The notes beneath the pieces were generated by a model. It did not search any database and had not been told where the DNA came from. It was given only the letters and a program-made list of their open reading frames with translations. A DNA stretch of 33,820 nucleotides from an uncultured Methanosarcinales archaeon (GTDB lineage: Archaea; Nanobdellota; Nanobdellia; Woesearchaeales; UBA119), in the NCBI GenBank assembly GCA_964580745.1, contig CAZOKS010000002.1, forward strand, positions 1 through 33,820, in the 5' to 3' direction. Of the stretch, positions 4,601-25,455 are shown in pieces (within the stretch, counting starts at the first letter, position 1; each line of letters starts with the position of its first letter). The translations under genes and the position numbers were made by a program.

Positions 4601-7600
4601 ATCATCAGTACAACTCACATTCCAGAAATGCTCTCCATCGGACAGATTTTTTACTAACTTTGAGCTAACCTCTCCTGAAAAGCTTGTTATATTCTCTTCA
4701 AGGATATCCCCTTCTGGATCAGAAATGAACAAATCACAGCTAACCTCTACCGAAGAATTAAAGTCGGTGGCAGTCCAATTGAACAAAATATCATTTTGAT
4801 TAAAGAGCTGGTCATCGCTAGGATGATGTAGCTCCACACTAGGCCCTTCCAAATCAACATAAAAGCTCTTTGAAGAACCATTCGTTCCTGTATTAGAATT
4901 TGGATCAGAACAATTCACATCCCATGTATAGCTTCCGTTTGGCAAGTCATAGAGGTTGAAGCTCGCTTCTACCCCTGATTCCACTCCTGCGTTTGTTTCG
5001 TTTGCTTCAGAATTTAATATTAGGGTGCATAGGGATATGTTTCCAGAGTTGTCAGTCGCAGTAAAGTAAAGAGTCACATTAACACTATTATTCCTATAGT
5101 TGGCAATCGGATTGCCCAAGCTAACCTTGGGCGGTTCCTGAACAGCAAAATCCTCGCTATTGCTTTGGTTCTCATTTAGAGCATTATCCCTGCAAAAAAT
5201 ACTCCAATTATAATCCCCATCATCTATCCCTTCTATCGTAAAAGTCGTAGGTGCTCCATTATTGCTTGTAATATCGGTAACATTCAAGCTGTCATTTAGC
5301 CAAAGATCACAGCTCAGCTCAGTAGCAAGATTGTCAGAGGCAGTCCAATTAAACAATACCGAGCTAGAATCCAGCTCTTCTGAGTTGATAGGTGAATTAA
5401 GAGAAATTTGAGGAGACAGGTTGTCCACATAAAAGGTTTTGTTAGTGGGCATAAAGCTATTCCCATCGCTGTCATTACACTGAACACTCCAAAGGTATGC
5501 CCCTTGTGCAAGATCTCCCATCTCAAAGGTATTGTTTTGTTTATTTAATACAAAAGAAGCAGTTCTATTGTAGCTCCCATTTATATATAACGCACAGCCC
5601 GTTATCAGGATATCATCCGAAGGGAAATATGTTAGGTTTACATCTGTTTCATTGAACCAGCTTTCATTATCGGGCGCAACCAAAGTAACGTTGGGTGGTG
5701 CTTCAACATCAAAAAACCAGGTGTCAGAAACATTGAAGTTCCCTGCTTTATCAGTGCAATCCACACTCCAGTTGTACGTTCCATCATTTAAAATATAATA
5801 ATAGGTATATTCAGTTCCATTGGTTGTATTCAAGTCGGAACCTATTGAATAAGTAGAGCCTTCATCGGTAAGATAAACATCACAGCTTAACTCATCTGAG
5901 ATTTTATCTTTAGGAATAAATTTGAATGAAACATTATTTCTTGCTACAGTGGAATCATTCTCAGGATAAGTTAATTCAATCTCAAACGGCTCTTCTGAAT
6001 CCACATAATAAGTCCAATTCTCCGGAGCCATTCCCGAAAGATTATTAGTATCATAGCACTTAACATTCCAATTATACCTTCCATCTGGCAGAGTTACAGT
6101 AAAGTTGTTCTCTACCTTTGCATTAATGTCATACTTTGTTTCGTTTTCTTGGCCGTTTAGCATAAGAGTACAGTTTGTAAAATTCTCGCTTCCCAGACTT
6201 GGAATGTATTTGAAACTAACATCATGGAATAAGTCTCCATCACCATCCTCTGGCGATGTTAGATTAACTCTCGGGCTTAATAGCACTGTAAAATTCCTCG
6301 TTTCAGATATGTTTGTATTGGTTGCATTATCAACACATGAAACACTCCAGTTGAAATCCCCGTTCCTCAACCCAGTAACATTAAACAAGGCAGGTACACC
6401 ATTATTGCTCTCAATATTGCTTCCATTAACACTATCGTTTATTGAAAGATTACAGAGTAATCCTGTTGCGAAATTATCTGCCGCAGTCCAGTTAAAGGTA
6501 TAAACTGTAGTGTTAATCGTATAATCATTTTCAGGCAGATTTAATGAAATTGTTGGCCCAGTTCTATCCACAATAAACCTCCAAGTATCAGAACTATCTG
6601 AATTACCATATACGCCGCTGTCATTGCACTTCACAAACCAGTTATATTCAGCTTCAGCAGGGGAAGAAAGGGTGAAGTTGTTTGTTTGCCCTTTAAGAAC
6701 ATTAGTTGAATTGGACTGATTAAATGTGCTATTGATATACAGAGAACAGCCCTCAATGTCATCATTATCACTTATATTATACTCAATAAGCACATTACTC
6801 TGATTAGTATGCGTATTGTTGCTTGGTGATATTGGCTCAACAACAGGAGTCTGGTTAATAGTAAAGTTTCTTGTTTCAGAGTAGTTTATATTGCCTCCAA
6901 TGTCTGTGCAGCTCACATTCCAGTAATGCACCCCGTCTTTATAACCGTCTAGAGTAACATCATATTGATTTCCACTACTCACAATAGAAGTATCATTCTC
7001 TACTCCATCCACATACAAGGTGCAGTTTAGAGTGTCATAGTTGTCTGTAGGTGTGTAAGAGAAGGCAACCTCAGAATCAGTAAAATAAGCATCATTCCCT
7101 GGGCTTTGCAGGTTTATATACGGTTTAGTTAAATCAACATAAAGGGTTGCATTCCCTGTTGAAGCATTATTGCCATTATTATCATAACAAGTAACGCTCC
7201 AATTATACTCTGTTTCATCAAAAGAAACGCTAAAATTATTCAATCCATTTATCAGCACAGACTGATTACTTTGATTATAAATCCCATTTATGTATAACTC
7301 ACATTCGTCAAGCGCAAAATTATCAGAAGCATTATAGGTAAGCTCCACACTTGTTTCATTCGTCCCGCTTTCATTCTCAGGAGAATACAAAGAGACTTGA
7401 GGCGGCTCGTCAGATATGTTAAAGCTTCTTGTCTCCGAGGTATTGGTATTGTTAGCCAAATCTTGGCATGCAATATCCCAAATATAGTATCCTATTTCAA
7501 ACCCTTCGATGGTGGTAGTCGCAGGAGTAGCATTATAAGCAGTAATCGTTGTATTTCTTGTTCCGTTTATCCTCAAATCACAGCTCATGTTTGCAGCTCT

Positions 7601-10600
7601 GTTATCATAGGCAGTCCAGTTAAACTCAATGTCTGGGGAGGTGGTGCTCCAATCATCTATGGGCTTATTAAGCTCAATCAGATAAGGCCCTTCATAATCC
7701 ACCTTAAGATACCATGTAGATGAATTTCCTACCCTTGATGATGTATCTTGGCAGGAAACACTCCAGTTATATTTCCTTTGCTCAAGTGATGAAAGGGTAA
7801 AGTTATTCATTCCACCATTGTTTATAGGGCTGGAATTAGTTTGGTTAAATATGCCATTTATGTACAAACTACAATTATCAATCTGACTATACGAAGAAGG
7901 GATGTATTCTAGGGTTACGCTTGAGCTGTTTACCCAGCTATTATTTTTGGGAGAGCTCAAATTTACTTCAGGCGCTTCAGTGCTAGCTACACTAACCTCA
8001 ACTGCCTCAGTATAAGAAGTTGAGTATTTACTTTGAGCAGCACACCTTATATATGTAGAACCCGGGGAAGACGCATTCAGTCCAAAGGATGTTGAATTAG
8101 ATGTGTTGAAAACATCTCCCATTGCGTGAGGATTAGTCTCGCTTCCATTCAACGAAATAATCCCTGAGCCAGATATAGCACTCCAACTCCCAGAGGCATT
8201 TGTCTGAGCAGTAACATTGGTTGAAAGGCAAGTTCCATCGGTGCAATTGACTTGACAAGATAATGTTAAGGAATTCCCCTGATCAACATATACCTTGGAG
8301 GAAGGAGCTGTTTTTGTTGCTTCCAGCGTTCCCAGCTGGGTAAAGCCAGTTACATTCACAAAGCTTGAAATATGGTCAATAAGATGCACAAAATCTCTGG
8401 ATTGGGCAGGATGCGTGTTTGTAAGCTCTATTTCGTAATAGAGCTTATCAGTGCTAAGAAGCCTTTTATCACTTGAAGGATTGCAGCTTCCCGTTGTGGC
8501 AGCTCCTGATGAGCTGGCCGTCCCTACTGTATTAGAGCATATTAATTCCTCTTCATCTGAACTATTTAAAATATAAAGCCACCAACTTACCTCAACCCTT
8601 GTATCGGAGGTTTGAAAATAAGTGCTGAATAAAACATCCCCTGATGAGGAGACCTCAGCACCATTCGCACCCATAAAAGGAGATTCCGCTTCTACAACCA
8701 ACTCGGAAGAGGAAGCAGCGATTGTTCCAGAGACAGAATTCTGGGTCCCATCTGTTCCCTGTTCTAAGGAAATCTCGCAAGGGAAGGAACTGCAATCACT
8801 TGTTGAAGATTCAAACCAATTACCATAATAAATTGGCTTGATAACTGATACTGTTAAGCTCCGAGAACTGCTTTGATTTGCATTCCCTGCTTCATCTACA
8901 CATCTAACATACCAAGAATAATCCCCATTATCAAGGTTATGATTAATGGTTTGGTTCTGATTCTTTGTTATTGATGTGTCTGTTTTTACACCGCTTCCAT
9001 TTACATAGAGGGTGCAATTGTCTATTCCAGAATCATCACTAACATTATACACAAAGGGAACCACATTAGAATCAGTATATGTGTCTCCATTACTTGGCAA
9101 AACCAAACTAACATCAGGCCCACTTCTATCGATTATGATTGTTCTATTAGTAGGAGAGGTAGCACTATTGCCATTAGAGTCCCAACACTCTACATTCCAA
9201 GCAAAATGCCCTTCATTGTTAAATGCAGCTATTATAGTGTTCTGACTCCCATTCGTAATAGAGTAAGTAGTGTTCTTAGCACTCCAGCTTGTTTCATTCG
9301 TGTATATGGAACAATTACTGATAGAGTACTCCTCGTTACTTGGGGTATAAGTGAACTCTTCTGAGGAGGCATTTGTTCTGTAATTGTTGTCAGGAGAATC
9401 AAGGGAAACCGAAAAAGCTCCAGGTTCAGTATAATTAATGGTATAGTTAACTCCATCAACACTTATGCTCATGCTTGGGCTTTTTCTTGATCTTCCCGGA
9501 GCCTGGAAATCCATGCTTGAATCTATATATATATAGTAGGTGCAATAATCAGGCCAATTGCTGCAATCCAAATTTGTAAAAGAGCGAGAACCGCTCTGCT
9601 CAATGCTTGAGTTGGTCCAACTTACTGATGTGGTTGAGGTATAAGACCCACTTCCAATAGTTGCTTCATCCCCATCATCATGGTTTTGGTCATGGTCAAA
9701 ATCCCCGCTTTGCTGAGCATTGCTCATAGTGCATCCATCAGCATTAACAGTAATAGTAACATTGATAATCATCTCTTCAAGAAAGAAACTTGTTGCATCT
9801 TGAGGGATGTTCAATGTAAAAGGGCAAAAGGTCGAGCAGGAAAGCGAGCCGCTATTCTGCTGATTGACCGAATCAGAACAACTGCATCCCACAGATGTGT
9901 TTACCTCGCTATACAATGGGTCTTCAGGCGTAAGCATAATGGTATAATTCTCTCCAGGAACAATATCCCTATCCTTCTGCCATCCACCCAAGCATTCCTG
10001 AGCATCAAAGTCATACTCTTGGCATTTATACAGCGCATTACCACTCGCTTCCAATTCAATCTGCGCAAAGGAAAAATTTAATCCTCTCGGATCAATAGCA
10101 AAGGACTGTACCGCTCTATTCCTGTTAACCCATACCTCTTTATTATCAATATCCTCCATCCTCAAACTATCCAGATTTTTGAGCTTAAGGTCATGAAACC
10201 TAATCTTGTTAACCTTGTTTGTTGGGTTAAGAACATCAATAAACTCTCCTCTGAAAGACCTGCCATATTCCCCCCTTACCTGCTTGCTTTGCCCTGCATG
10301 ATTCTTAATTTTTATAGGTATGGTAGCAAGCTTTTTCTCTTGGCCAAAAGAAGGGAGTGTCAGTGCTTTTTCTTCTCCAAGTATTTTCTCAGATTGCTTA
10401 TCAAATTGTTTATTTGTTTGCTTCCCTGATTGCAGCCCAACATCGCCGGCTTTATCCCCAACAAAGAAACTCGCTTCGTCAATTATCTTTCCCGAATCCC
10501 TCAGCTGGACAAAGTATTCCCCATTCTCAGAAGGAGCAAACCGAATCTCTTTGGAAAGCTCTAAGAGTTTGAAGCTTTTATCTTTATGAACAACAAACAG

Positions 10601-11104
10601 CTCCAAGGAAGGGTTATTAATGTTTCCCCCAACAAGCTGCACAACAAGCTCCTCTCCCTTTTGGAGTTTATTTGAGTTGATTCTCAGAGAAGGATAGCTG
10701 TTCCCCTCTTTTTTCTGAGAAAATTCCTTTTTATCCGAATTTATCTCACCTGAAACAACAAACTCAAGACTACTCATATCCCTGCCTGATTTATCCCTAA
10801 GAAAAACAGAATATTCACCTTCCTGAGCAAAACTTAATATTATAGGAAAAATCAACTCTCCCCAATACATACTTCTTCTTCCATCCTTGACCATTATTAA
10901 GTCATATTCCTTAGAAACATCTTTTCCATTCATGTTTTCAGGAACAAGCCTTAACTCTATCTTTTCATTAATGCCATAAACAATCTTCTCAAGCGGATTA
11001 AAAGAAACCTCAAAAGGCTGAATCTCAGAAAAAGAGCTATGATTACCTAAAACGATGAATACAAGTACAACTAATAAACCCGCAAAAATCTTTGGCCTTT
11101 CCAT
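1649..11104 (-). CDS. Giant (3151 aa) secreted adhesin-like protein with about 20 Ig-like repeats, two CARDB-like modules and a distinctive C-terminal domain
   Basis: 9456-nt uninterrupted ORF with an N-terminal hydrophobic signal/anchor (IFAGLLVVLVFIVLG). The N-terminal region has EGEY(S/F)V modules and the LYKC..(Y/W).F..QEC motif. Two Ig-like repeats lie at about 8840-9420, followed by a unique ~290-aa region and then the repeat arrays listed below. No C-terminal TM. N-X-S/T sequons occur about once per 10 residues in the repeats I inspected. Confidence 0.93.
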   Translation of the reverse strand: MERPKIFAGLLVVLVFIVLGNHSSFSEIQPFEVSFNPLEKIVYGINEKIELRLVPENMNGKDVSKEYDLIMVKDGRRSMYWGELIFPIILSFAQEGEYSVFLRDKSGRDMSSLEFVVSGEINSDKKEFSQKKEGNSYPSLRINSNKLQKGEELVVQLVGGNINNPSLELFVVHKDKSFKLLELSKEIRFAPSENGEYFVQLRDSGKIIDEASFFVGDKAGDVGLQSGKQTNKQFDKQSEKILGEEKALTLPSFGQEKKLATIPIKIKNHAGQSKQVRGEYGRSFRGEFIDVLNPTNKVNKIRFHDLKLKNLDSLRMEDIDNKEVWVNRNRAVQSFAIDPRGLNFSFAQIELEASGNALYKCQEYDFDAQECLGGWQKDRDIVPGENYTIMLTPEDPLYSEVNTSVGCSCSDSVNQQNSGSLSCSTFCPFTLNIPQDATSFFLEEMIINVTITVNADGCTMSNAQQSGDFDHDQNHDDGDEATIGSGSYTSTTSVSWTNSSIEQSGSRSFTNLDCSNWPDYCTYYIYIDSSMDFQAPGRSRKSPSMSISVDGVNYTINYTEPGAFSVSLDSPDNNYRTNASSEEFTYTPSNEEYSISNCSIYTNETSWSAKNTTYSITNGSQNTIIAAFNNEGHFAWNVECWDSNGNSATSPTNRTIIIDRSGPDVSLVLPSNGDTYTDSNVVPFVYNVSDDSGIDNCTLYVNGSGVKTDTSITKNQNQTINHNLDNGDYSWYVRCVDEAGNANQSSSRSLTVSVIKPIYYGNWFESSTSDCSSFPCEISLEQGTDGTQNSVSGTIAASSSELVVEAESPFMGANGAEVSSSGDVLFSTYFQTSDTRVEVSWWLYILNSSDEEELICSNTVGTASSSGAATTGSCNPSSDKRLLSTDKLYYEIELTNTHPAQSRDFVHLIDHISSFVNVTGFTQLGTLEATKTAPSSKVYVDQGNSLTLSCQVNCTDGTCLSTNVTAQTNASGSWSAISGSGIISLNGSETNPHAMGDVFNTSNSTSFGLNASSPGSTYIRCAAQSKYSTSYTEAVEVSVASTEAPEVNLSSPKNNSWVNSSSVTLEYIPSSYSQIDNCSLYINGIFNQTNSSPINNGGMNNFTLSSLEQRKYNWSVSCQDTSSRVGNSSTWYLKVDYEGPYLIELNKPIDDWSTTSPDIEFNWTAYDNRAANMSCDLRINGTRNTTITAYNATPATTTIEGFEIGYYIWDIACQDLANNTNTSETRSFNISDEPPQVSLYSPENESGTNETSVELTYNASDNFALDECELYINGIYNQSNQSVLINGLNNFSVSFDETEYNWSVTCYDNNGNNASTGNATLYVDLTKPYINLQSPGNDAYFTDSEVAFSYTPTDNYDTLNCTLYVDGVENDTSIVSSGNQYDVTLDGYKDGVHYWNVSCTDIGGNINYSETRNFTINQTPVVEPISPSNNTHTNQSNVLIEYNISDNDDIEGCSLYINSTFNQSNSTNVLKGQTNNFTLSSPAEAEYNWFVKCNDSGVYGNSDSSDTWRFIVDRTGPTISLNLPENDYTINTTVYTFNWTAADNFATGLLCNLSINDSVNGSNIESNNGVPALFNVTGLRNGDFNWSVSCVDNATNTNISETRNFTVLLSPRVNLTSPEDGDGDLFHDVSFKYIPSLGSENFTNCTLMLNGQENETKYDINAKVENNFTVTLPDGRYNWNVKCYDTNNLSGMAPENWTYYVDSEEPFEIELTYPENDSTVARNNVSFKFIPKDKISDELSCDVYLTDEGSTYSIGSDLNTTNGTEYTYYYILNDGTYNWSVDCTDKAGNFNVSDTWFFDVEAPPNVTLVAPDNESWFNETDVNLTYFPSDDILITGCALYINGSYNRTASFVLNKQNNTFEMGDLAQGAYLWSVQCNDSDGNSFMPTNKTFYVDNLSPQISLNSPINSEELDSSSVLFNWTASDNLATELSCDLWLNDSLNVTDITSNNGAPTTFTIEGIDDGDYNWSIFCRDNALNENQSNSEDFAVQEPPKVSLGNPIANYRNNSVNVTLYFTATDNSGNISLCTLILNSEANETNAGVESGVEASFNLYDLPNGSYTWDVNCSDPNSNTGTNGSSKSFYVDLEGPSVELHHPSDDQLFNQNDILFNWTATDFNSSVEVSCDLFISDPEGDILEENITSFSGEVSSKLVKNLSDGEHFWNVSCTDDLNNTDYSVTWRFVVNQPDLYINASLIGFNNTNPSINDTINITANVSNIGGIDASNVEVEFWDGRPDDGGSLIGSDQKNVAYNDSSLFYIEWNITEGMHVVFVSADPSNSINELNESNNNATLNISVLWVEWNSPENESVFNSSNVDLNFTLHDYTGGAINYSIYVNDMFSGEEGEGIDGVSENISVNLNEGLNTIFVEGLDYLDRRKNSSELYITLDTNAPTSEILTANESWFNISAPNISIRIIDSLDSILNYTLYINGSSENQGYVSNNSIENITLNTQPDGEYLLVLEGEDDASNKENSSSKIIYIDTEKPSIELNYPPNQENFSTSDVSLNYTVYDNLASVADCYITLDGEDKGLSNVNVGEENSYLATDLSEGEHLWNVTCFDEANNSNTSETRIFNVFFPPVIEVTSPKNLTWSNQDTNTFRFNVTDDTGIENCSIVLNGAIKDTKFNIINNSENSFTVSGMNNTNIWQIECYDNSSYHAYGISSERVLYVDLVEPSSTITTVNHTWFNSNPSISFILEDNMANPINYTVYVNDSFNSEGNSGNNSEDSANLLGLQNGTYEIKVEAKDNALNAQNSSSIIVYYDTVEPSINLTYPENDSSIDTDTTNLNFSVEDNMAESLICNLTLDGEIIEQNILVLNGSEENVSVVDLEGGPHYWNVSCIDNATNIGQSETYLFYSPYPDLEVNSSNIFFSDDSPSEGSIVNITATVFNIGGGDAKNITVQFWENEIGGSGSQIGSNQTINLTALESENVSVEYTAELGTNDIFVVVDPSNEIEEENETNNNASKSITVEFWHYAGGETNDTITLEDEELEGIFQWQVANSTGSNIYVSDYDADVNWQSLQALGRDTSGNERIEDFGELDNALNSSTFFDSVNATYLENGNPKETIELEVYNQEITNIPVVNSTNSTSFKTGILWDFSDGGTTYSEVQDVIFLTVVNKSQQGYNETRDFEIRIPATLGQLVGPDNDKVAFYTEIK
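1652..2203 (-). other. C-terminal ~184-aa domain of the giant protein (unnamed module, copy 1 of 4 in the window)
   Basis: FWHYAGGETNDTITLEDEELEGIFQWQV...NIYVS...FFDSVNATY...NIPVVNSTNSTSFKTGILWDFSDGG...VIFLTVVNKSQQGYNETRDFEIRIPATLGQLVGPDNDKVAFYTEIK(stop). It aligns by eye with ORFs 23821-24582 and 24648-25424, and with aa 93-262 of the 1369-aa protein. Confidence 0.65.
2204..2548 (-). other. CARDB-like module 2 of the giant protein
   Basis: PDLEVNSSNIFFSDDSPSEGSIVNITATVFNIGGGDAKNITVQFWENEIGGSGSQIGSNQTINL...DIFVVVDPSNEIEEENETNNNASKSITVE. This shows the V.N.G...A / F..D / D..N...E.NE.NN pattern typical of CARDB domains. Confidence 0.6.
2549..4219 (-). repeat. Tandem array of 6 Ig-like protein repeats (~93 aa, ~279 nt each)
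   Basis: Repeat starts read as LWVEWNSP, NAPTSEIL, EKPSIEL, FPPVIEV, VEPSSTI and VEPSINL. Three repeats have the Cys pair (DCYITLDG..WNVTCFD; NCSIVLNG..WQIECYD; ICNLTLDG..WNVSCID) and three have no Cys at all. DNA identity between units is low; the repeat is visible at protein level. Confidence 0.75.
4220..4555 (-). other. CARDB-like module 1 of the giant protein
   Basis: QPDLYINASLIGFNNTNPSINDTINITANVSNIGGIDASNVEVEFWDGRPDDGGSLIGSDQKNV...HVVFVSADPSNSINELNESNNNATLNISV. The pattern matches module 2. Confidence 0.6.
4556..7984 (-). repeat. Tandem array of 12 Ig-like protein repeats (~95 aa each), mostly alternating between two subtypes
   Basis: Subtype A looks like P.V.L.SP.N....V.L.Y..S.....C.LYING..N........NNF.......YNW.V.C.D. 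Subtype B looks like P.I.L..P........F.WTA.DN.A..LSCDL..N.....NG.....T..G...G.Y.W...C.D.A.N...SE.R.F. The order I read is A,B,A,A-like,A,B,A,B,A,B,A,B. 3429 nt / 12 = ~286 nt per unit. Confidence 0.75.
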
Positions 11105-11128
11105 CTGAAATCCTTACTTACCTTTCCT

Positions 11129-12022
11129 TTACTTACCCTTCTCTTTATTTATCTCCTTAAGGGACCCTTCAACCTCCTCCTTAATCTCTTTGGAAAGCTT
11201 AGAGAATTTATTCTTCAACTCCTCCATGGTTGATTTGGTCTTGTCATCCAGCAGGTTTATAAGATTGGTAGTGTGCTTCTCAAACTTGTTGAACTTTTTG
11301 ATGAACTTTACCAGCTCATTCTTATCCGCTTTCTCGTCCACTTCTACCTTCAACTTATCAAAATCCCCCTGCAACTTGTCAAAACTTCTCTGAAGATTCT
11401 TTGTTATCTCATTAAACTGGTCAAACTCCGAAAATTTCTTCTCTACCTCAACAAACATAGACTCAACCTTGTTGGAATGCCTTTCAACATTTGCTTCCCT
11501 CTTCTTAATCTCAATCAGTTCCTCCTTAATTTCATCGTTGAGCTTGGTTACCTGTTCAACCCCCTTGTAGAAATCAATCTTGCTCTGAACTGATTTAAGC
11601 TGCTCCAGCACATTCTTCACAAGGGATTCATTGCTCTCAATATTCGCCTTCAGCGCTTCAGTCTTAGAATCAACCTTTCTAACCTCAATCATCAATTTGT
11701 CTGGTTTAACAGATTCCACAAGGTCAATCGCTTTAGTAGCAGCAGTTTCAAGGTTTGCAATCGTTTTTGATGTGTCTGTAAGCATCCCCCTCAGCTCTCC
11801 AATCTCCTCATTAAGTTTAGAAAATCTTTCATTTGTGGCTTTTCTCTCCTCGCTCAACCCTTCAATCTTGGCACTGAGCTTCGTCAACTCTATACCAAGC
11901 TTTGAATCACCGAAATTTTCCTCTTTAGAGCTCTGCCTAGCACTCGCTCTCCTTTGCTTTTCCTCTTCCAGATTTTGCTTAATCCTTTCCTCATCGCTTA
12001 GCTTTTTCTTAAAAGGCCACAT
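11129..12022 (-). CDS. Cytoplasmic coiled-coil protein (297 aa), function unknown
   Basis: K/E/L-rich heptad-like sequence throughout, with no hydrophobic TM segment. GAAGGTGGA lies just upstream of ATG 12022. The stop is 24 nt upstream of the giant gene start. Confidence 0.8.
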   Translation of the reverse strand: MWPFKKKLSDEERIKQNLEEEKQRRASARQSSKEENFGDSKLGIELTKLSAKIEGLSEERKATNERFSKLNEEIGELRGMLTDTSKTIANLETAATKAIDLVESVKPDKLMIEVRKVDSKTEALKANIESNESLVKNVLEQLKSVQSKIDFYKGVEQVTKLNDEIKEELIEIKKREANVERHSNKVESMFVEVEKKFSEFDQFNEITKNLQRSFDKLQGDFDKLKVEVDEKADKNELVKFIKKFNKFEKHTTNLINLLDDKTKSTMEELKNKFSKLSKEIKEEVEGSLKEINKEKGK

Positions 12023-12159
12023 ATTTCCACCTTCTTGTTTTACGTCTTTTTAATTTCATTATTTTCTCTCATCCGCATTTACCCACATTTTCTCATATAG
12101 CAAACATAATGTTGTATTATGGATTCCTTTTGATTTTTATTGAGTATTATCCCTTGATA

Positions 12160-12672
12160 TTAGTCCCCTTTATTTCCATTGTCCTCCCTAACTCGCCTCA
12201 TAATCTCGCTCTTCAAGTCATACTCCTTCTTTTCTTTATCCTGTTTAATTTGTTTCTCAATTTGGCTAATCAACTCTCCAAGTTCGTTAATCCGTTCCTC
12301 ATCATCTTCAATCTCGAGAAAGCCAATCTTCCCCTTAGCCATCGTTAATAACGCCGAAGCATGAAACATATCCTTTCCTTCTTTTCTGGCAGCTGAAATC
12401 TCTCTATCCAACTCAGCCATCTTTTCCTTCAAACCCTCAAGCTTCTCCATTCCAACCCGAACATCTATTAGAGAGGATTCTTTCATCACATTAACCTTCT
12501 CAAGGTATTTCTCTGATTCTTTCATTACTTTATCAAACTCCTCTCTGCTTATGCTTCCCTCATTCTTTTTCTCATTCCTATTTTCATAACTCTCAGGATT
12601 TCTCTTTTCAGTTTTGTCTTCTTTATTCCTTACCTTATTCATTTCCTGGGCCATTAGACAACGCCTCAACAA
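12160..12672 (-). CDS. Small cytoplasmic coiled-coil protein (about 160-170 aa), function unknown
   Basis: The ORF limit is ATG 12672. In-frame ATGs at 12654 (MAQEMNKV) and 12642 (MNKV) are more plausible starts. ATG 12642 overlaps the TAA of the upstream 1369-aa gene as ATGAATAA. The protein is charged and helical with no TM. Confidence 0.7.
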   Translation of the reverse strand: MLRRCLMAQEMNKVRNKEDKTEKRNPESYENRNEKKNEGSISREEFDKVMKESEKYLEKVNVMKESSLIDVRVGMEKLEGLKEKMAELDREISAARKEGKDMFHASALLTMAKGKIGFLEIEDDEERINELGELISQIEKQIKQDKEKKEYDLKSEIMRRVREDNGNKGD

Positions 12673-15600
12673 GCTTGTCCTTCTTCATTAGATTACCAAT
12701 CCTTTCCGCGAATTCCTCATCCTCAAGGGAGTATTTTATCCAATTGGAAAAATCATGCTTTTCCTCATTTACATACTTCCTGAATGTCTCATCTGGCATA
12801 TCCTTTAATATCTCCTTTAATTCCTTAAGATTAGAGGCCACCTTTCCATCGGAAAATCTGAACTCCTTTCCTTTAGGAGCCTTCTTATTCAGCAGTCCTT
12901 CAAGATTATTCTTAGATTCAGGGCTCTCCAGAGTATCATCTTTATTCTTTTCCTTAGTTGTTTCATCAACATTCCCTTCACCTTCTTCGCCAGCCTCTTT
13001 GTTATTGCTTTTCCCTTCCTTTTCTTCCCTTTCTTTCCCCTCTTCTTTATTTTCTCTATCCTCTTCTCCTTTTTCTTTTCCTCCATCTTTCTCTTCTTTT
13101 CTATCTTCTCTGTTCTCATTATTTTCTCCTTCATCTCCTTTTTCTTCACTTACAGTATCGCTTTCTTCATCGTCTTTCCCTTCTTTTCTATCTTCTCCGT
13201 TCTCTTCACCCTTTCCATCCTCTCCATCCTTTCCATCATCCTCCTTGCTTTCGTTCTTCTTTTTATCATCCTTGCCTTTTTCTTTTTTAGGAAGTTTTTC
13301 TCCCTTGCTCCTTTTATCCAACAACTCCAAAATCTCCTTTCGGTCTTTAGTTTCATCAAGCAAATCAGCGAGCTCATCATCTCCAACTGCATTTCGAATC
13401 CAATCAGCAAAATCATTTTTCTCATCATTAACATGGAACTTGAAGTCTGAGTCCTTCATTGCCTCAATCTCTGCATACAAATCTCTGGGATTTACTACCA
13501 ACATGCCATTGTTAAGCTTCAGCATATTTTCAGGCTTTACATCTCTGTTAAATCTCTCCGTTACGGACTTCTCTGATTCCCCTTCCTTCTTCTTACCTTC
13601 TTCATCACCTTTTTTCTGTTCAGCCTCAATCTTCTCCCTTTCCTTCTTCGCTTTCTCCAGCTCCCTTCTCATCTCCTCTTCCGAAACCTTCGGCCTCTCC
13701 AACTTCTTTGGCTTTTTGCCAAGCTTCTTCCACAGCTTCTCAACCCTGGGCTTCAGGCCATCAAGATAGATTTTGGCCATGTTGAAACCTCCCGCCTTAA
13801 CCTTATCTAGTGCAAGTTTCAACTCCAACTTCAAGTCAAACACATCCTGGTCCAACTGTTCCAGCTGCTCCAACTCAAACTGCATCTGGTCAATAATATC
13901 ATTGTATTCGTTGTATTTCTCAATCTCTTCATCAGAAAGCCTCTCAACCGAATGCTTAATAGGTTTGAAAGTAACAAAGTAAGGCCGGCCTCTATTATAT
14001 GCCGAATTTTGCACCATCCCAGTTCCAACGCTTGCTTTAACCAAACTCTTCAAAACCTCATCACCGTACTTGGTCTTAATCCTCTCCAAATCCCCTTCAT
14101 CCCTTGTTCGCATCTGGATTTCCGTATTGATGTTAGCTTTAATCTGCCCCACGAAGTCCGCCAAAACCTGGCTAATAAGCATAACGCCAATTCCCCACTT
14201 CCTAAACTCTCGGCAAGCCCTTTCAATCTGGATAAAGCCCTCCCCACTTCCACCAAACTTGGATAGCAACCTATGGACCTCATCGTAAACCAAGCATAAT
14301 CTTAACTCTTGAGACTCATCAAAACCCTCATGGAATACCTCTCTAACTGTGTTCGCAACAAATACATCAATATCCTTAGGGTCAAGCTTATGAAGAGCAA
14401 AAACCTGAATTTCTCCCGGTTTCATATACTTCTTTATGTTAATAATCTCTTTAGCATCTGTAATCTCTCGAATGTTTCCCTTGAAAGCTTTAGCATCATT
14501 CGGCTTCATCCCAAATCCTGAATAAAGATTCAGCAACCCCTTATTCTCCAATTTCCTTAAAAATCCAGTCCACTGAGCAGTAGGATCAAACACAATAACA
14601 GCAACATCCTTATCCAACAACTCTTCAATAATTACCTGGGCAGCGAAACTCTTACCACCACCAGTACTACCTGCCACAATCGTGTGAGTCTTAAAGTTCT
14701 CAATCTTGAAATAAGTCCTATTATTCGTTTCTGCAATCTTCCCAACATATATCGTATCGGGTCCAGGTTTAGGAAGCTGCGAATACTCCACCTTCAAATG
14801 ATACTTCTTCTTCGCTTCAATTTCCTTTCTAAGCATAAATATGCCGAAAATCAATAAAGCCAATCCAATACCCATTAAGATGGCCTGCCAAACCCTTATC
14901 TTTCCAAACAAGAGATGCTGATAGAAAGGCTCTGTTACAGTAAAAACAGCACTAGTACTGCTCGTTAAATCAAGATAGCTGGCGCTTGCCCTGATTATAT
15001 ATTCGCCTGTAGGCAAATCAGGAGGCAGCTCATAATTCTTAATTATTGAAAGAGAAGTCCTCAAAAAAACATTCGTTTGATGAGTCCATAAAGTCTCATT
15101 GCCATTTATATTCTGAATAGTATAAACCAACTGCACCGGATACTGCTGGTCGGTAAGCAGATTTGTTAGAGAATTCTTGAATCTAACAAACGAGCCCGGA
15201 TAGTAATTCTTTTCAGGAACGCTGATTTCCATTAACATCGCCTGAACAGGACTCTTCTCCTTGCCTAAAATCTCAATAATGATAGGGATTGTCGTATTAA
15301 TCCCGCCAGTAATGTTAAGCGTTCCATTGTATACCCCTGGAGTGCTGTTTCCAAAGAAAGTCAAGGTCAAATCATCAAGGTCCTTTGCCCCAATAAACGT
15401 TCCCCTTTTATCCATCATTGTTATTTTCTTAACATCTCCTGTAATGTTAAATTGAAGCTGAATCCCCTTGTTCTTAAAACTCTGGATATGAATAACCTCT
15501 TGGGCAAACTCAGCCAGCCTAATCTTCTTATAGATTTTATTGACAGAAATCCAGAACTCCTTCCCCTCAATCTCAGAGGGCCTTTCTTTTCTATATGGGA

Positions 15601-16744
15601 TTTCGCCAGGACCCACATTCGGCCCAAAATCCGGTCCCACATTTTGTTCCGCGGGCGGGCTGTCATACTCTTTCTGCTCGACCTCCAGCTCCATGATAAT
15701 ATTATGCATGGTTGAATTGCCTTCCGGAATCGTGATATTGCTTTCATATACCTGATAGTTCTCCTTTATCGCGATTATCTGCGTCTCGCCCGCCCGCGTT
15801 GTCAGATTGTAAAAACCCTTCTCATCCGTAACCGTGGATTTTGGGCCGGATGTTATCAGCACATTCTCTAATGGATTCCCGCTTATATCAGTTACAATTC
15901 CATAAACTATTCCTTTTACATATGGTTCTTCTTGCCCCGAAATACAAACATTTGTAGGGTCTATGAAAACATAGTATTTTGTGGTTTGATTGTTGTGAAC
16001 AGGCAGGAGAAACTGGTAGTTGTAGTATCGATTGGTAAACCCCTTAACTAATCTCTCATTCAAGATGGTAACCACGACAGGATTCCCATTGCTGTCCTTC
16101 AAAAGGCCTGTTTTGAATGTGCCCTCTTCAGTGCCACTTCCTACTTTGGTTGTCGCAGCAGGTATGTTGTTGATGGTTTTGGAGCCAATCTCTATGCTCA
16201 TTGTCCCGGTAAAGGTATTGGAAGCAGAATCATAGTCATCTGGGTTCGAATTTATGAAGGCATTAACCTCGGCAGGAGACATTGGAACAAGGTCTTGCAC
16301 AACTATTTCTTCAGGAGGTACGGTAGATGCAAACAATAGGTTGTCTTTTCCTTCTTCTACACAATCAAAGAACATATTGGCTTCTTCTGTTCCCCCCGGC
16401 TCAAATGTGTATTCCCATGGCTGAGAAAAACCAACGCCAAATGCAGCACCGTATAAGGCAACCCAGTTGTATGTTGGTCTTGTGTATATAAGATTCATAT
16501 TATAGATATAACCGCCTCGCCCTTCATGATATATTATAAAACCGGTTATTCCTTCACGCCCTAAAAAAGAGGCTGTGATTAGGATTATTGCGCATACAAC
16601 AAGAGATATGATTATCGCCCAGTTCCTTTTACTATCCCTTTTCCTTTTATCTCTTTCATCTAGGAATTTCTCAAGGGCAGGCTCTCTTTCTATGAGATGT
16701 TCAATATCCTTATTTATCTGCTGCGGTTTTTTTATCCCAACCAC
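12635..16744 (-). CDS. Two-TM membrane protein (1369 aa): large ectodomain, cytoplasmic HerA/FtsK-superfamily P-loop ATPase, low-complexity linker and two conserved tail modules
   Basis: GTG start at 16744, directly after an in-frame TAG.
- Basic N-terminus.
- TM1 at aa 42-62 (16559-16621).
- Ectodomain with a carboxypeptidase-regulatory-like beta-sandwich (GIVYGIVTDISGNPLENVLITSG..TDEKGFYNL, about 15690-15930).
- TM2 at aa 618-638 (14831-14893).
- Walker A GSTGGGKS (14648-14671).
- Walker B LCLVYDE (14279-14299).
- Further context: VIVFDPTAQW, MLISQ, NTEIQMRTRD.
- Coiled coil, then a K/E/D/G-rich linker (about 12888-13295).
- Tail modules at about 13296-13560 and 12638-12887. Confidence 0.9.
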   Translation of the reverse strand: MVGIKKPQQINKDIEHLIEREPALEKFLDERDKRKRDSKRNWAIIISLVVCAIILITASFLGREGITGFIIYHEGRGGYIYNMNLIYTRPTYNWVALYGAAFGVGFSQPWEYTFEPGGTEEANMFFDCVEEGKDNLLFASTVPPEEIVVQDLVPMSPAEVNAFINSNPDDYDSASNTFTGTMSIEIGSKTINNIPAATTKVGSGTEEGTFKTGLLKDSNGNPVVVTILNERLVKGFTNRYYNYQFLLPVHNNQTTKYYVFIDPTNVCISGQEEPYVKGIVYGIVTDISGNPLENVLITSGPKSTVTDEKGFYNLTTRAGETQIIAIKENYQVYESNITIPEGNSTMHNIIMELEVEQKEYDSPPAEQNVGPDFGPNVGPGEIPYRKERPSEIEGKEFWISVNKIYKKIRLAEFAQEVIHIQSFKNKGIQLQFNITGDVKKITMMDKRGTFIGAKDLDDLTLTFFGNSTPGVYNGTLNITGGINTTIPIIIEILGKEKSPVQAMLMEISVPEKNYYPGSFVRFKNSLTNLLTDQQYPVQLVYTIQNINGNETLWTHQTNVFLRTSLSIIKNYELPPDLPTGEYIIRASASYLDLTSSTSAVFTVTEPFYQHLLFGKIRVWQAILMGIGLALLIFGIFMLRKEIEAKKKYHLKVEYSQLPKPGPDTIYVGKIAETNNRTYFKIENFKTHTIVAGSTGGGKSFAAQVIIEELLDKDVAVIVFDPTAQWTGFLRKLENKGLLNLYSGFGMKPNDAKAFKGNIREITDAKEIINIKKYMKPGEIQVFALHKLDPKDIDVFVANTVREVFHEGFDESQELRLCLVYDEVHRLLSKFGGSGEGFIQIERACREFRKWGIGVMLISQVLADFVGQIKANINTEIQMRTRDEGDLERIKTKYGDEVLKSLVKASVGTGMVQNSAYNRGRPYFVTFKPIKHSVERLSDEEIEKYNEYNDIIDQMQFELEQLEQLDQDVFDLKLELKLALDKVKAGGFNMAKIYLDGLKPRVEKLWKKLGKKPKKLERPKVSEEEMRRELEKAKKEREKIEAEQKKGDEEGKKKEGESEKSVTERFNRDVKPENMLKLNNGMLVVNPRDLYAEIEAMKDSDFKFHVNDEKNDFADWIRNAVGDDELADLLDETKDRKEILELLDKRSKGEKLPKKEKGKDDKKKNESKEDDGKDGEDGKGEENGEDRKEGKDDEESDTVSEEKGDEGENNENREDRKEEKDGGKEKGEEDRENKEEGKEREEKEGKSNNKEAGEEGEGNVDETTKEKNKDDTLESPESKNNLEGLLNKKAPKGKEFRFSDGKVASNLKELKEILKDMPDETFRKYVNEEKHDFSNWIKYSLEDEEFAERIGNLMKKDKLVEALSNGPGNE
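15959..16468 (-). other. Ectodomain segment (aa 93-262) of the ATPase protein carrying the unnamed module shared with the giant adhesin and the small secreted proteins
   Basis: TYNWVALYGAAFG...NLLFAS...DDYDSASNTFTGT.SIEIGSKTINNIP...GTFKTGLLKDSNGNPVVVTILNERLVKGFTNRYYNYQFLLPVHNNQTTKYYVFIDP. Compare FKTGILWDFSDGG..VIFLTVVNKSQQGYNETRDFEIRIPA..FYTEIK at the giant C-terminus. Confidence 0.6.
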
Positions 16745-16933: not shown

Positions 16934-19900
16934 CTATTCGATGCTTTGGTTGTTGAGTATCTTAAGCAGGTCTTCTACCTCTTCCTTCAATTCTTTCTTA
17001 TCAGCATCATTTAAGAGGTCATAGGCTTCATTCAATTCCCTCATCCTTTCAATTTTGTCAATCTGTTTATCATCTCTTATCTCTTCTGCTGTTTTGTCTA
17101 TCATTTTTAAGAGATATGCTTTATTGATTTTGTCATGAATGCTAAGGGCTTCTTCATAAGCATCTTCTTTGATTCTCTGAGGCATCTTTTCATAAATCAA
17201 TTTAATTTCCTTGAACACCATGTTTGCTCTTTCCAAATTTCCTTCCTGAAGATAATCCAGAGCATCGTTTATCAAGGACCTTATCTGAGCCAATTGTTTT
17301 TTCTTTCTGCGTTTGGCAACGCTCAATATATTTTCTCCAACCTCAGTTGAAAATATTAGGTAAATGGCTATTACTACTGATACAAGGATTATGCCAAATA
17401 TAGGAGAGGTGAAATCAACATCAGGCAAAGAGAACGCTCCTGTTATCAAATTCCCTCCTTTATCAGTGGAGATTAGATTCTCTGAGAATACAATAGTTTG
17501 TGATTCTTTTATGCTCTCAAAATCTTTAAATTCATCAGTATAATAGATTATTTTATCCTTTAATTCGAATTTTACTAGCGGGTCTTTCTTTATTGTTTCC
17601 TGGCTGCTCACAAAAGTTATGGCATTTGTTGTTTCTGCGAAGCCTTTTGAGATGTTCTCTAATATAAAAACGCGAGTATGGTCCGCTCCTGAATAAGTGA
17701 TTACTTTTTCTACCAGCGTAATCTCTTCTGTATGGTTGTCAAGGAATTGGAGTGTTACATGGCTTGCCTTTGTTTCTACAGAAAGTTTGTTTTGGAGTTC
17801 CTTTAGTTTCTCTTCATCAACTTTTCCTAAAATTCCTTTCTCTTTAATATATTGGTTTGCTATACTAACCAGTTCTTGTTGTTTTGGGTAACTAACATAG
17901 CTCTCTGTTTTTTCTACCTTTAGAGTAGAAATTGTGTTTTTCTCCAACTCTTTTAACTCAGCCTGATATTCCTCAGCTTTCTTTTTCTTTTCGTCATTGC
18001 TTAGGTCTTTTCGGTATTGAAGATTGTTCAAATCCCTTATCTTTCTTTCGAATGTCTGGAGGGTCCTTTCCAGGTCTTGTTTTACTGATAACGCTTCGGC
18101 CGCTGATTTTGATTGTAGGTCAAGTCCGTTTAGGTTTTCAAATCCTTCTTCTATCTTTGTTCTTAAAGAGCCTGCATCTATGCTTCCATCTGTTTGCTCT
18201 TCTTTTGAACTCTTTTCTGTATCTGACTGCTGAACAGATGCAGTATTGTCCTTTTCCACCTCAAAGCTCGCAATCTCTGATGAGAATGTGTCATTCCCTG
18301 AATCACATTCAATCTTCCATTCATACTTTCCCTTATCTAGGGTTTTGGTTAGCTCTGCTACATAGTTTTCTTCTACATCGAAACTTTTAATCTCTTCAAA
18401 CCAATCAGATTTACTTGGTTTTAGGAAAATGGTACATTCTGCATCTTCTGCACTGCTCACGCTTGCTAAGAAAGTTATATCTTGGTAATCAAATGAGCTT
18501 TCATCTTTCGGCTGGAACAGGACTATTTGGTTGAGCTTCTCTCTTAAAGAGTTATCCAATTGAAGAACCACATCTATAGTCTGCTTCTCTTTGACTTCTA
18601 TAGCCCTTCTGTATGCTTCGTAATCCTTTTTCTCCACCCTTAAGGTATGCTCTCCAAGAGGCACCTTCAGCTTAATTTCACCATTATCTTTCGTATATCC
18701 GCTTCTGTCTCCGAAGTCCACATAGGCAGATTCGATAGCTTTGCCATTAGAGTCCTTAACTCTGATTGTGATTTCTCTCCAATCATCCACATCAACAGCA
18801 ATCTGCTTGGTTTTAGAGTTTCCTTCACTATCCTTAACCTCAAGAGTAATGCCATAATTTCCTTTTTCATCATATTTTATCTCCAGGTTTTTGTCTTCAA
18901 TTCTAGTTCCGTTCTCTAAAATCCATGAGTAGTGATAGCCGGGAATTCCTCCAGATGCGCTTGCTTCAAGCTCAAGTTCTTCCCCAACAAGAACATCTAG
19001 TTTTCCTTCAATCTCAATCTGCAGGTTATTTGAAACAACAAAGCTCTTTCCTATTTTATATGTTTTGTTTTGGTGGCTGATTGTTGCATTTATTGAATAT
19101 TCTCCCGTTGTGTTTAAACTTCCCAATGACTTTATCAGGGGGTATGTTTCTTTATTTAGAGTGTAAATATTGGAGCAGGTTATCCAGGTTTGTCCTGCCA
19201 TATACTCCGGCCCGCAAAACTCAATGTTGGCATTTGAACCATTCGGAGCTGTTATCTTGAAATATCCTTCCTCTCCTATTGTATAATTCTCCTTATTAAG
19301 CTCGAGTGAGAATACCAGCGGCAGAACCCCAATTTCCTTTTCAATCCTTTTTTCTTCGTAATTTTCAGAACCATTATATACTATTTCTATAAGGTATTCC
19401 CCCTTTTCAGAAAAGGTATGATTAACTGAAATGCTTTCTGAGGATACATAAGAATCATTGATTATTGAGCCATTGATTAGAAGGTATATCTTTCCTTCAG
19501 GGTTATTATTCTTGGCGTTAATCTCTATACTATCTCCTTCATATATGATGTTTTCAGAAATAGAAAACTCTATGTTTGGCTCAGCCCTCTTAACCTCAAA
19601 CTTAAATGTGGGAGTTGAATAAGTTTCATCTAACACATCTAACAGAAAAGATAGACTCCAAGTATAATTTCCCGAAGGAATTTCAGGAGTGGTGCAGGAA
19701 AAGTTATAAAGATTATCATCTGTTATTGTATTATAACTATATGTCCACTCAATATCTTCATTAATTGCTTCTCCATCTGGACCTATTGGTCCGTTTGGTT
19801 CTCCTCCATTGGAAATATTCCATACGCTCCATAATACAAATTTTTTATTAGGTTCATAAATAAAGCTTGAACCATCTTCTGGTCCGTACTTGTCAATCCA

Positions 19901-20131
19901 TTCTGCTGTTGGTTCGTTGTTTGTTTCGGGGTTGTTTGTTGTTTCATTGGTTTTAATTGTTTTTGCTGATTCATTGGTTTCATTGGTTTCATTTGTTGGG
20001 TCTAAGGTATCAGCCCCTATAACTATGTCCATTTCAATGGCAAAGCCCACAGCAAATACCGCAGCAATCAGCAATATCATTATGCTGGTATTAAAGATAT
20101 CCCAAAACCCAAATCTCCTCTCCTTTTTCAT
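16934..20131 (-). CDS. Bitopic surface protein (1065 aa): Ig/PKD-like and carboxypeptidase-regulatory-like domains, extracellular coiled coil, C-terminal TM and helical cytoplasmic tail
   Basis: Domain order:
- N-terminal signal/anchor (IMILLIAAVFAVGFAI).
- PKD-like GGIPGYHYSWILENGTRIEDKNLEIKYDEKGNYGITLEVKDSEGN (about 18790-18985).
- ITIRVKDSNGKAIESAYVDFGDRSGYTKDNGEIKLKV (about 18565-18775).
- One Ig repeat like those of the giant protein (KYEWKIECDSGND).
- Coiled coil.
- Juxtamembrane TIVFSENL...ITGA.
- TM PIFGIILVSVVIAIYLIFS (about 17345-17405).
- ~136-aa helical tail.
The start overlaps the upstream RHH stop as ATGA. Confidence 0.9.
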   Translation of the reverse strand: MKKERRFGFWDIFNTSIMILLIAAVFAVGFAIEMDIVIGADTLDPTNETNETNESAKTIKTNETTNNPETNNEPTAEWIDKYGPEDGSSFIYEPNKKFVLWSVWNISNGGEPNGPIGPDGEAINEDIEWTYSYNTITDDNLYNFSCTTPEIPSGNYTWSLSFLLDVLDETYSTPTFKFEVKRAEPNIEFSISENIIYEGDSIEINAKNNNPEGKIYLLINGSIINDSYVSSESISVNHTFSEKGEYLIEIVYNGSENYEEKRIEKEIGVLPLVFSLELNKENYTIGEEGYFKITAPNGSNANIEFCGPEYMAGQTWITCSNIYTLNKETYPLIKSLGSLNTTGEYSINATISHQNKTYKIGKSFVVSNNLQIEIEGKLDVLVGEELELEASASGGIPGYHYSWILENGTRIEDKNLEIKYDEKGNYGITLEVKDSEGNSKTKQIAVDVDDWREITIRVKDSNGKAIESAYVDFGDRSGYTKDNGEIKLKVPLGEHTLRVEKKDYEAYRRAIEVKEKQTIDVVLQLDNSLREKLNQIVLFQPKDESSFDYQDITFLASVSSAEDAECTIFLKPSKSDWFEEIKSFDVEENYVAELTKTLDKGKYEWKIECDSGNDTFSSEIASFEVEKDNTASVQQSDTEKSSKEEQTDGSIDAGSLRTKIEEGFENLNGLDLQSKSAAEALSVKQDLERTLQTFERKIRDLNNLQYRKDLSNDEKKKKAEEYQAELKELEKNTISTLKVEKTESYVSYPKQQELVSIANQYIKEKGILGKVDEEKLKELQNKLSVETKASHVTLQFLDNHTEEITLVEKVITYSGADHTRVFILENISKGFAETTNAITFVSSQETIKKDPLVKFELKDKIIYYTDEFKDFESIKESQTIVFSENLISTDKGGNLITGAFSLPDVDFTSPIFGIILVSVVIAIYLIFSTEVGENILSVAKRRKKKQLAQIRSLINDALDYLQEGNLERANMVFKEIKLIYEKMPQRIKEDAYEEALSIHDKINKAYLLKMIDKTAEEIRDDKQIDKIERMRELNEAYDLLNDADKKELKEEVEDLLKILNNQSIE

Positions 20132-20394
20132 TTTAAAGTCCTCAACGATTCTTTCAACTCTTTGAGTAATTGTTCGTTTCTTTCCAACATCGCTTCTAAT
20201 TCCTTTGCTTTTTTGGATGTGTTTTCGCGCTTTTTTGGAGTAAGAAGCCTTCGTTCTTTATCTTCGAGGAATCTCTTGTTTAAGACCGCCCTAATCTGTT
20301 CTGAAATATCCATATAAAAGTTCTTCTCGCTTAATGATTTCAATCTTCTTGCTAATCCAGCGGGCATTCTTATGCTAACTAAAGTGTCATTCAT
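20128..20394 (-). CDS. Ribbon-helix-helix DNA-binding protein with coiled-coil C-terminal extension (88 aa)
   Basis: LVSIRMPAGLARRLKSLSEKNFYMDISEQIRAVLNKRF fits the RHH strand plus two helices. There are ATGA overlaps with both neighbours (20391-20394 and 20128-20131). Confidence 0.8.
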   Translation of the reverse strand: MNDTLVSIRMPAGLARRLKSLSEKNFYMDISEQIRAVLNKRFLEDKERRLLTPKKRENTSKKAKELEAMLERNEQLLKELKESLRTLK

Positions 20395-24582: not shown

Positions 24583-24647
24583 ACCCTCTATCTTTTTGTT
24601 TTATTTTTTCATGTGTATATTTATATTGAAGGTCGGTGGTGTATAAA

Positions 24648-25424: not shown

Positions 25425-25455
25425 AGGTAATCAAGTCTCATTGAGGTATGTAAAC

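Follow-up and report, generated by a model that had tools for sequence, protein, structure and literature searches.

The 33,820-nucleotide stretch of DNA analysed here (hereafter the window; metagenome contig CAZOKS010000002.1 of assembly GCA_964580745.1, labelled an uncultured Methanosarcinales archaeon and placed by GTDB within the Woesearchaeales) carries three copies of a module of about 80 amino acids (aa) on two different membrane-spanning proteins. Two of these, which we call A1 and A2, occupy the region 12638-13560 within the 3' part of a 1369-aa minus-strand open reading frame (ORF, 12635-16744) that encodes an ATPase, and the third, module B, sits at the C-terminus of a 1057-aa surface protein. 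Module boundaries were set with a hidden Markov model (HMM) built from 72 family sequences, to which the bit scores of the modules below refer, and place the features as follows.

12635..16744, minus strand: membrane-anchored HerA/FtsK-type ATPase of 1369 aa, with Pfam matches to DUF87, CarboxypepD_reg and DUF5752.
13304-13549, minus strand: module A1, ATPase aa 1066-1147, 100.7 bits.
12890..13303, minus strand: disordered E/K/G/D-rich leash between A1 and A2, about 135 aa, seen from its composition and a predicted local distance difference test (pLDDT) score below 50.
12653-12889, minus strand: module A2, ATPase aa 1286-1364, 98.9 bits.
26840..30013, minus strand: 1057-aa surface protein, described from transmembrane (TM) segments, flank charges and BLASTP.
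26846-27094, minus strand: module B, aa 974-1056 of the 1057-aa protein, 83.9 bits.

These positions agree with the original prediction, which had described three homologous copies from the letters of the sequence: all three peptides that it quoted are found in the minus-strand ORFs to which it had assigned them, and A1, A2 and B as defined by the HMM fall inside its approximate coordinates. The module has the signature F-x-L-x-x-G ... F-x-x-H-V-N-x-x-K-N-D-F-A-x-W-I, and the residues conserved across it are hydrophobic, aromatic or N/D/H (F12, G17, L26, F38, H41, V42, N47, D48, F49 and W52); module B has a 5-residue insertion preceding the NDF motif. Pairwise Smith-Waterman scores among A1, A2 and B are 109-112, while shuffled sequences give a mean of about 30 with a standard deviation of about 5.8 and a maximum of 64, so that z is about 14 and none of 2000 shuffles reached the observed score. 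HMMs that draw exclusively on unrelated DPANN loci give A1, A2 and B 60-93 bits, with module B at 60-64 bits when no window sequence contributes to the model. The similarity is therefore not the low-complexity product of K/E-rich sequence that had been named as the result that would undo the claim. A six-frame scan of the window found no fourth copy, the next-best match reaching 5.6 bits; a degenerate one, for example in the tail of the neighbouring 1065-aa surface protein or in the coiled-coil proteins, was sought with two HMMs with filters off and none was found.

The module had been left unnamed, and a search of Pfam, as the original prediction had proposed, identifies it as one repeat of the family PF19027 (DUF5752), to which no function has been assigned. 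The whole ATPase scores 30.6 bits against PF19027 (E = 2.7e-7, in two stretches) at a gathering cut-off of 23, whereas the isolated modules all fall below this cut-off (21.7 bits for A1, 22.6 for A2 and 20.7 for B) and align to positions 51-102 or 128-201 of the 208-position model. Since each isolated module matches one half of PF19027, the Pfam model is a tandem of two such units, which also accounts for the low scores of A1 and A2 in isolation. The full-length 1057-aa protein does not reach the PF19027 gathering score and is not listed for the family at E <= 1; the homology of module B to the family is nevertheless secure on the HMM comparisons above. A profile of the module matches a single solved structure, 4CSO (OrfY of Thermoproteus tenax, 216 aa), with E = 9.2e-5 for a 3-sequence profile and E = 1.3e-8 for the 72-sequence profile, which aligns to residues 18-87 and 134-191 and thus to both OrfY repeats. 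The AlphaFold2 (AF2) model of A2 (pLDDT 84.9, predicted template-modelling score (pTM) 0.69) consists of a short beta-hairpin region and five helices, and in a Foldseek search of the Protein Data Bank (PDB) its top matches are 4cso_B and 4cso_D (probability 0.84; TMq 0.68 and 0.62), with a root-mean-square deviation (rmsd) of 2.4 A over 81 columns, though with a Foldseek E-value of 0.6-0.7. All other matches in the PDB have a probability of at most 0.11, leaving 4CSO as the sole credible relative; among them DusB (template-modelling score about 0.4, probability 0.11) was considered as a structural relative and treated as noise, and the BFVD viral structure library gave no match for the A2 model. 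Combining the profile and structural matches, we conclude with high confidence that the three copies are single DUF5752/OrfY domain units with the fold of OrfY. The domain itself is thus already catalogued, with a crystal structure, and the architecture in the window is non-canonical in that single units are carried on the tails of membrane proteins.

The topology of the two carriers is similar. Hydrophobic segments lie at aa 43-61 and 620-638 of the ATPase and at aa 32-50 and 745-763 of the 1057-aa protein, and in both a large ectodomain separates the N-terminal from the second segment, the C-terminal flank of the second is enriched in K/R, and the modules are C-terminal to it. The P-loop domain of the ATPase lies between TM2 and its modules. 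The segments, the charged flanks and the position of the P-loop support placing all three modules on the cytoplasmic side, after a TM segment and K/E-rich linkers, as had been predicted.

From N- to C-terminus the ATPase comprises an N-in TM segment (aa 43-61), an ectodomain of about 560 aa with CarboxypepD_reg, TM2 (620-638), the P-loop domain, a helical region and the two modules. It matches DUF87 (PF01935) at 45.1 bits, with a cut-off of 23.2 and the Walker A motif GSTGGGKS at aa 692, and the nearest solved sequences are the HerA structures 4d2i and 8xau. No named equivalog (CedD, TraD, TraC, DNA-repair HerA or anti-phage HerA) fits, all NCBIfam scores being 12-32 bits against cut-offs of 366-850. 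An anti-phage defence role was considered and rejected, PADLOC HerA/mad8 matches being at most 56 bits and confined to the ATPase core, and the adaptor and surface proteins described below have no PADLOC match at all.

Twenty close relatives of the ATPase were compared, two of them named Woesearchaeota, and we found that the two modules differ sharply in their retention: A1 is kept in 20/20, A2 in 13/20. Seven orthologues have no A2, and two of these, P0196 and P0197, carry tetratricopeptide (TPR) repeats at the C-terminus. Mean identity to the window ATPase over 18 orthologues is 0.78 for the core, 0.61 for A1, 0.25 for A2 and 0.13 for the linker between the modules. On these comparisons A1 is a fixed unit, conserved nearly as well as the ATPase core, and A2 is a variable terminal unit, which in the window lineage has Y in place of the usual H41 and H in place of the usual N47. 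The leash between them (E37, K27, G18 and D17 of 134 residues in the window) is compositionally biased and 58-220 aa long across the orthologues. In the AF2 model of the native ATPase tail both modules have pLDDT above 90 and the linker below 50, with a pTM of 0.35 that the 120-residue disordered linker depresses. In the closest public genome (L003, GCA_002505945.1, DAWM01000019.1, about 9500-9760) a run of N lies inside the low-complexity linker of the ATPase tail, and because of this assembly gap the last module is annotated as a gene of its own, of 87 aa (P0001); K/E linkers of low complexity seem to disrupt both assemblies and gene calls in this family.

The second carrier has an N-terminal TM segment or signal anchor, an ectodomain, the TM segment at aa 745-763 and a cytoplasmic tail of about 290 aa. 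It is a paralogue of the 1065-aa protein encoded immediately upstream of the ATPase (BLASTP 7e-8 over the membrane-proximal ectodomain and TM segment), from which it differs in its longer tail ending in module B. Its orthologues P0064 and P0203 (Woesearchaeota) and that at locus L049 keep the module.

The ATPase is itself part of a gene cluster on the minus strand of the window, 1649-20582, with the following further members, from its head to its end.

20128..20582, minus strand: 63-aa ribbon-helix-helix (RHH, CopG) protein and 88-aa protein at the cluster head, RHH_1 26.7 bits.
16934..20131, minus strand: 1065-aa PKD/CarboxypepD_reg surface protein immediately upstream of the ATPase, PKD_4 40.7 bits.
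12160..12672, minus strand: 170-aa helical adaptor with an RKEGKD motif, identified with jackhmmer and BLASTP.
11129..12022, minus strand: 297-aa coiled-coil protein, a conserved cluster member with weak coiled-coil-type Pfam matches only.
1649..11104, minus strand: 3151-aa giant surface protein, the last cluster gene, with Pfam Big_13, Big_7 and CARDB repeats.

The order (RHH and ~88-aa proteins, PKD/TM surface protein, HerA ATPase, helical adaptor, coiled-coil protein, giant CARDB/Big_13 protein) is kept in L003, L084, L085, L087, L088 and L089. In these same six loci a counterpart of the 1065-aa protein, which has a C-terminal TM segment and a helical tail of about 140 aa without a module, stands upstream of the ATPase. 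The RHH and ~88-aa pair precedes the cluster in L003, L084, L085 and L087; orthologues of the 297-aa protein adjoin the adaptor in L003, L040, L056, L074, L083, L084, L085 and L086; giant CARDB/Big_13 proteins are encoded after the coiled-coil gene in L084, L085 and L087, the giant proteins of the cluster ranging from 2464 to more than 7000 aa; and a divergent ATP-binding cassette (ABC) transporter lies upstream in the window, L003 and L085. Both coiled-coil proteins that the original prediction had singled out as candidate partners are thus conserved cluster members, the 170-aa one being the adaptor. The literature that we searched does not describe a function for this cluster; an envelope-spanning machine for export, assembly or DNA transfer is one possibility.

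A homologue of the adaptor lies downstream of every ATPase orthologue examined with jackhmmer, and the window adaptor matches module-bearing proteins of L085 and L074 by BLASTP (2e-9 and 4e-8). We found that the adaptor carries a DUF5752 unit in 9/12 lineages, including all three examined in which the ATPase is without A2, and that this unit is N-terminal to the adaptor domain in some lineages and C-terminal in others. Moreover, A2-type modules are nearer to the adaptor modules (scores 130-180) than to A1 (105-125). These comparisons show a second module copy that moves between motor tail and adaptor across lineages. The adaptor ORF starts with TTG at 12672 (164 aa in the source annotation) and overlaps the final ATPase codons (12635-12672); the same overlaps, of 4-8 nt, occur in L084, L085, L087 and L088, which suggests that the two genes may be translationally coupled.

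Other genes of the window were noted in passing. Between the ABC transporter and the gene of the 1057-aa protein lie three consecutive plus-strand genes (23821-26355) for secreted or TM-anchored proteins of 253, 262 and 313 aa without a Pfam match, the first two of which look paralogous in their similar lengths and their C-termini ('...YYFWLEIE' and '...YYFFAEIAQ'). At 30300-32081, also on the plus strand, a 593-aa protein without a Pfam match has a signal sequence and a C-terminal TM segment, and its short cytoplasmic tail, with CxxC...CxxC, resembles a zinc ribbon (CKNCGYKNPILRKTCKKCKEPL).

Beyond the window the family proved to be large. Searched exhaustively with HMMER, a set of 1.84 billion cluster representatives yielded 4591 proteins at E <= 1e-3, 2023 of them at E <= 1e-10, and a genome scan seeded with the motif KNDFANW gave 323 confirmed sites. 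Among the best 80 of these, from which taxon labels were taken, most are labelled DPANN (Woesearchaeota, Pacearchaeota, Nanoarchaeota, Aenigmatarchaeota) and about one third Methanosarcinales, Saccharibacteria or Paceibacterota; several metagenome-assembled genomes (MAGs) have more than one module locus. Many third-party-annotation (TPA) 'binchicken' MAGs labelled Methanosarcinales or Saccharibacteria have DPANN-type module loci (L004, L007, L011, L015, L017, L019, L038, L045 and others). Such labels conflict with the DPANN-like gene content, and it may be either that they are wrong or that the family extends past DPANN.

Counting domain partners, also proposed at the outset, brought out many that are unrelated to one another. 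The module occurs as stand-alone proteins of 80-130 aa, in some cases with a basic K/A/P-rich tail; as tail-anchored proteins in which a linker joins the N-terminal module to a C-terminal TM segment; at the cytoplasmic C-terminus of surface proteins; on HerA ATPases; as two or three N-terminal units followed by a KaiC-like ATPase (PF06745); fused to long coiled coils; and as two units after a coiled coil of FlaC_arch, archaellum accessory protein C (P0062, P0074 and P0201). One source calls P0201 'archaellum component FlaC', and a link of the module to the archaellum or to other motor-associated scaffolds is possible from these fusions. A further, conserved class of soluble DPANN proteins of about 320-500 aa has an N-terminal amphipathic 'MVKxFIxGLxGKK' sequence, followed by an acidic disordered region and a conserved coiled coil ('NYWELKKxEIKxG ... 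KWQxQKLALEED'), and ends in one or two modules, two in proteins of about 360-500 aa, with no Pfam family over the N-terminal part (P0007, P0009, P0012, P0016 and about 20 more representatives; L050 5212-6522; L049 9821-10771); the N-terminus is possibly membrane-targeting. In-frame fusions join the module, at 87-99 bits each, to the C-terminal half of transketolase, glycoside hydrolase family 57 (GH57), a Pyr_redox_2 flavoprotein (flavin reductase), acetate kinase and an ABC-2 permease. The fusions to metabolic enzymes and the transporter are located as follows.

L009, 4987-6264
L059, 5002-6225
L023, 4807-6261
L037, 1112-2251
L082, 210-1607
L072, 4297-6423

Module genes are also frequently neighbours of one another. 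In 41 loci we counted 46 neighbouring same-strand pairs, 25 of which consist of a small soluble protein followed by a tail-anchored one, and the tail-anchored partners have the module and the anchor and no other domain. The soluble and tail-anchored pair, for example 5929-6258 with 6252-6632 in L073, lies directly downstream of a GH57 gene in 19/23 loci, and nearby are genes for a eukaryote-type glycogen synthase of glycosyltransferase family 3 (GT3, PF05693), amylo-1,6-glucosidase, a sugar-nucleotidyltransferase, a GalT/HIT protein and an ArsR-type regulator. The DPANN operon with GH57 and the DUF5752 pair, found at about position 6000 in most of the loci concerned (L006, L008, L016, L018, L021, L027, L032, L040, L048, L051-L053, L062, L071, L073 and L076-L081), is clearly conserved, the bias of the seed pattern notwithstanding. 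Its DUF5752 genes are thus parts of archaeal glycogen gene clusters that have had no annotation. No gene of carbohydrate metabolism (alpha-glucan or trehalose) was found in the 33.8-kb window.

Considering these data together, we tentatively favour a reading, although we would give it somewhat less than an even chance, in which the DUF5752 unit serves as a cytoplasmic protein-docking module. Modules would bind one another or a shared module-binding partner, and docking of this kind would gather the motor, the adaptor, the coiled-coil partners and the surface-protein tails at the inner face of the membrane. The ATPase would contribute a fixed A1 just past the motor and an A2 at the tip of a disordered leash of about 135 residues, and the cytoplasmic tail of the 1057-aa surface protein would present one module at its end; elsewhere in DPANN the module would serve as a tag on soluble enzymes, ATPases, transporters and tail-anchored membrane proteins. 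We favour docking because the fusion partners are so varied, because module genes adjoin one another, many of them as soluble and tail-anchored pairs, and because the adaptor so often carries a module, to which A2-type modules are nearer than to A1. It is preferred to sensing because TM-anchored proteins with nothing but the module exist, because TPR repeats, which are protein-binding, end two of the orthologues without A2, and because A2 is placed on a flexible leash. A membrane-tethered module without an output domain would be sensible as a receptor.

Several observations weigh against docking. In the AF2 monomer of the ATPase tail A1 is not packed on A2, the match to 4CSO having an rmsd of 16.4 A and a TMt of 0.26, and paired soluble and tail-anchored modules have no charge complementarity. 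The polar residues H41, N47 and D48 are among the best-conserved positions and might belong to a ligand site instead of an interface. In its gene context the family is most strongly associated with glycogen metabolism and not with surface machinery, the adaptor of the window is itself without a module, and the sample of genome loci is biased to one orthologous group because of the KNDFANW seed. The proposal in the original prediction that a module shared by two surface-spanning proteins implies a common cytoplasmic partner, or clustering of the two, is plausible, and the comparative evidence from the operon clustering, the module on the adaptor and the TPR repeats points towards it; a direct contact between A1 and A2 does not emerge from the monomer model.

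The main rival, which we regard as possible but on the whole unlikely, holds that the module is a regulatory ligand-binding domain, comparable to CBS, ACT or PAS, that senses a sugar, an alpha-glucan-derived compound or another metabolite and passes the signal to the protein to which it is fused, in the window the HerA motor and the tail of the surface protein. Being fused to metabolic enzymes, a transporter and ATPases, the module shows the classic pattern of a small-molecule sensor, and the placement of the pair directly after GH57 among glycogen genes, the fusion of one module to GH57 itself, the label 'trehalose-6-phosphate synthase' that one source gives to a module fragment, and the conserved H, N, D and W, which are typical of sugar-binding sites, all point the same way. 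However, many members have no output domain, being the module alone or with a TM anchor; A2 of the window lineage has replaced both H41 and N47; a disordered leash of 58-220 aa is ill-suited to allosteric coupling; the C-terminal TPR repeats suggest protein binding; and carbohydrate-metabolism genes are absent from the window.

We consider it very improbable that the module binds nucleic acid, holding or guiding DNA at the HerA/FtsK-type motor during translocation across the membrane, with OrfY as a transcription factor. HerA/FtsK ATPases are DNA pumps, the ATPase has weak NCBIfam matches to CedD, TraD and TraB, and several stand-alone module proteins have basic K/A/P-rich N-terminal tails. 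The 'transcription factor' tag of 4CSO, which also speaks for this function, is the depositors' label only, and the literature searched holds no paper on it. Moreover, no helix-turn-helix (HTH), winged HTH or other DNA-binding family was detected in the module, the Foldseek search turned up no DNA-binding fold, the net charge of the modules is negative (A1 -7, A2 -1, B -3), as is that of most of the paired modules, and fusions to transketolase, acetate kinase, GH57 and an ABC permease are hard to square with DNA binding. Finally, a compositional artefact of K/E-rich tails with no real domain behind it, for which the extremely K/E/D/G-rich linkers around the modules might speak, has next to no probability and is ruled out by the shuffling, the size of the family, the 4CSO profile match and the confident AF2 fold of a Pfam family with a solved homologue.

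At a more general level, we can speculate that DPANN archaea, namely Woesearchaeota and their relatives, use DUF5752 as a cytoplasmic address tag, by analogy an intracellular counterpart of dockerin and cohesin, in which membrane receptors recruit tagged proteins; this broader proposal we consider unlikely as it stands. The tail-anchored module proteins and the tails of surface proteins and the HerA machine would be the receptors, recruiting module-tagged GH57, transketolase, acetate kinase and flavin reductase as well as KaiC-like ATPases and coiled-coil scaffolds. If true, the membrane of these very small cells would be the place where both metabolism and the surface or attachment apparatus are organised.

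The module is one of few sequence links between an uncharacterised Woesearchaeota cluster of HerA and giant surface proteins, glycogen operons and enzymes of central metabolism. As a docking module it would provide a concrete way into the assembly of DPANN cell-surface machines, in the form of a small and well-folding domain, and as a sensor it would point to a common metabolite signal; either outcome would give DUF5752/OrfY a function. The finding identifies a tractable domain and a conserved DPANN surface-machine locus. We found no relevant paper on DUF5752, OrfY, 4CSO or DUF87 with DPANN in the literature searched, and the T. tenax trehalose-operon and genome papers do not mention OrfY. Against this literature, what appears to be newly seen is the single unit of about 80 aa rather than a family of about 200 aa, its expansion in DPANN and its range of fusions, and the link to both glycogen operons and the HerA/giant-surface-protein cluster appears to be undescribed.

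Comparison with known systems places the window modules closest to OrfY (4CSO) and PF19027, with which they share sequence family and fold. The differences lie in architecture: OrfY and its kind are soluble proteins of about 200 aa with two adjacent repeats, whereas the window has single repeats on large membrane proteins, A1 and A2 being 134 aa apart, and the predicted ATPase tail does not adopt the two-repeat arrangement of OrfY. Similar to TraD/VirD4, the ATPase of the Ced system and EssC/EccC of the type VII secretion system (T7SS), the window ATPase has a DUF87/HerA P-loop after TM segments and is encoded beside surface and secreted proteins; its matches to these are far below the cut-offs and mostly to the P-loop region alone, and no ATPase family of conjugative coupling, Ced or T7SS is known to have an ectodomain of about 560 aa or DUF5752 tails. 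In its distribution the module resembles CBS, ACT and PAS domains, being fused to enzymes, transporters and ATPases, occurring in stand-alone forms and having a gene context tied to one pathway, glycogen; it differs from them in that no homology was detected and many module proteins are without an output domain. Dockerin-cohesin and TPR/SH3 adaptors have no sequence or fold relationship to the module, which is moreover cytoplasmic and not extracellular. The likeness to them is one of use, in that a small domain has been added to many unrelated proteins, catalytic as well as structural, and to membrane anchors, often through flexible linkers, and several of its carriers are encoded side by side.

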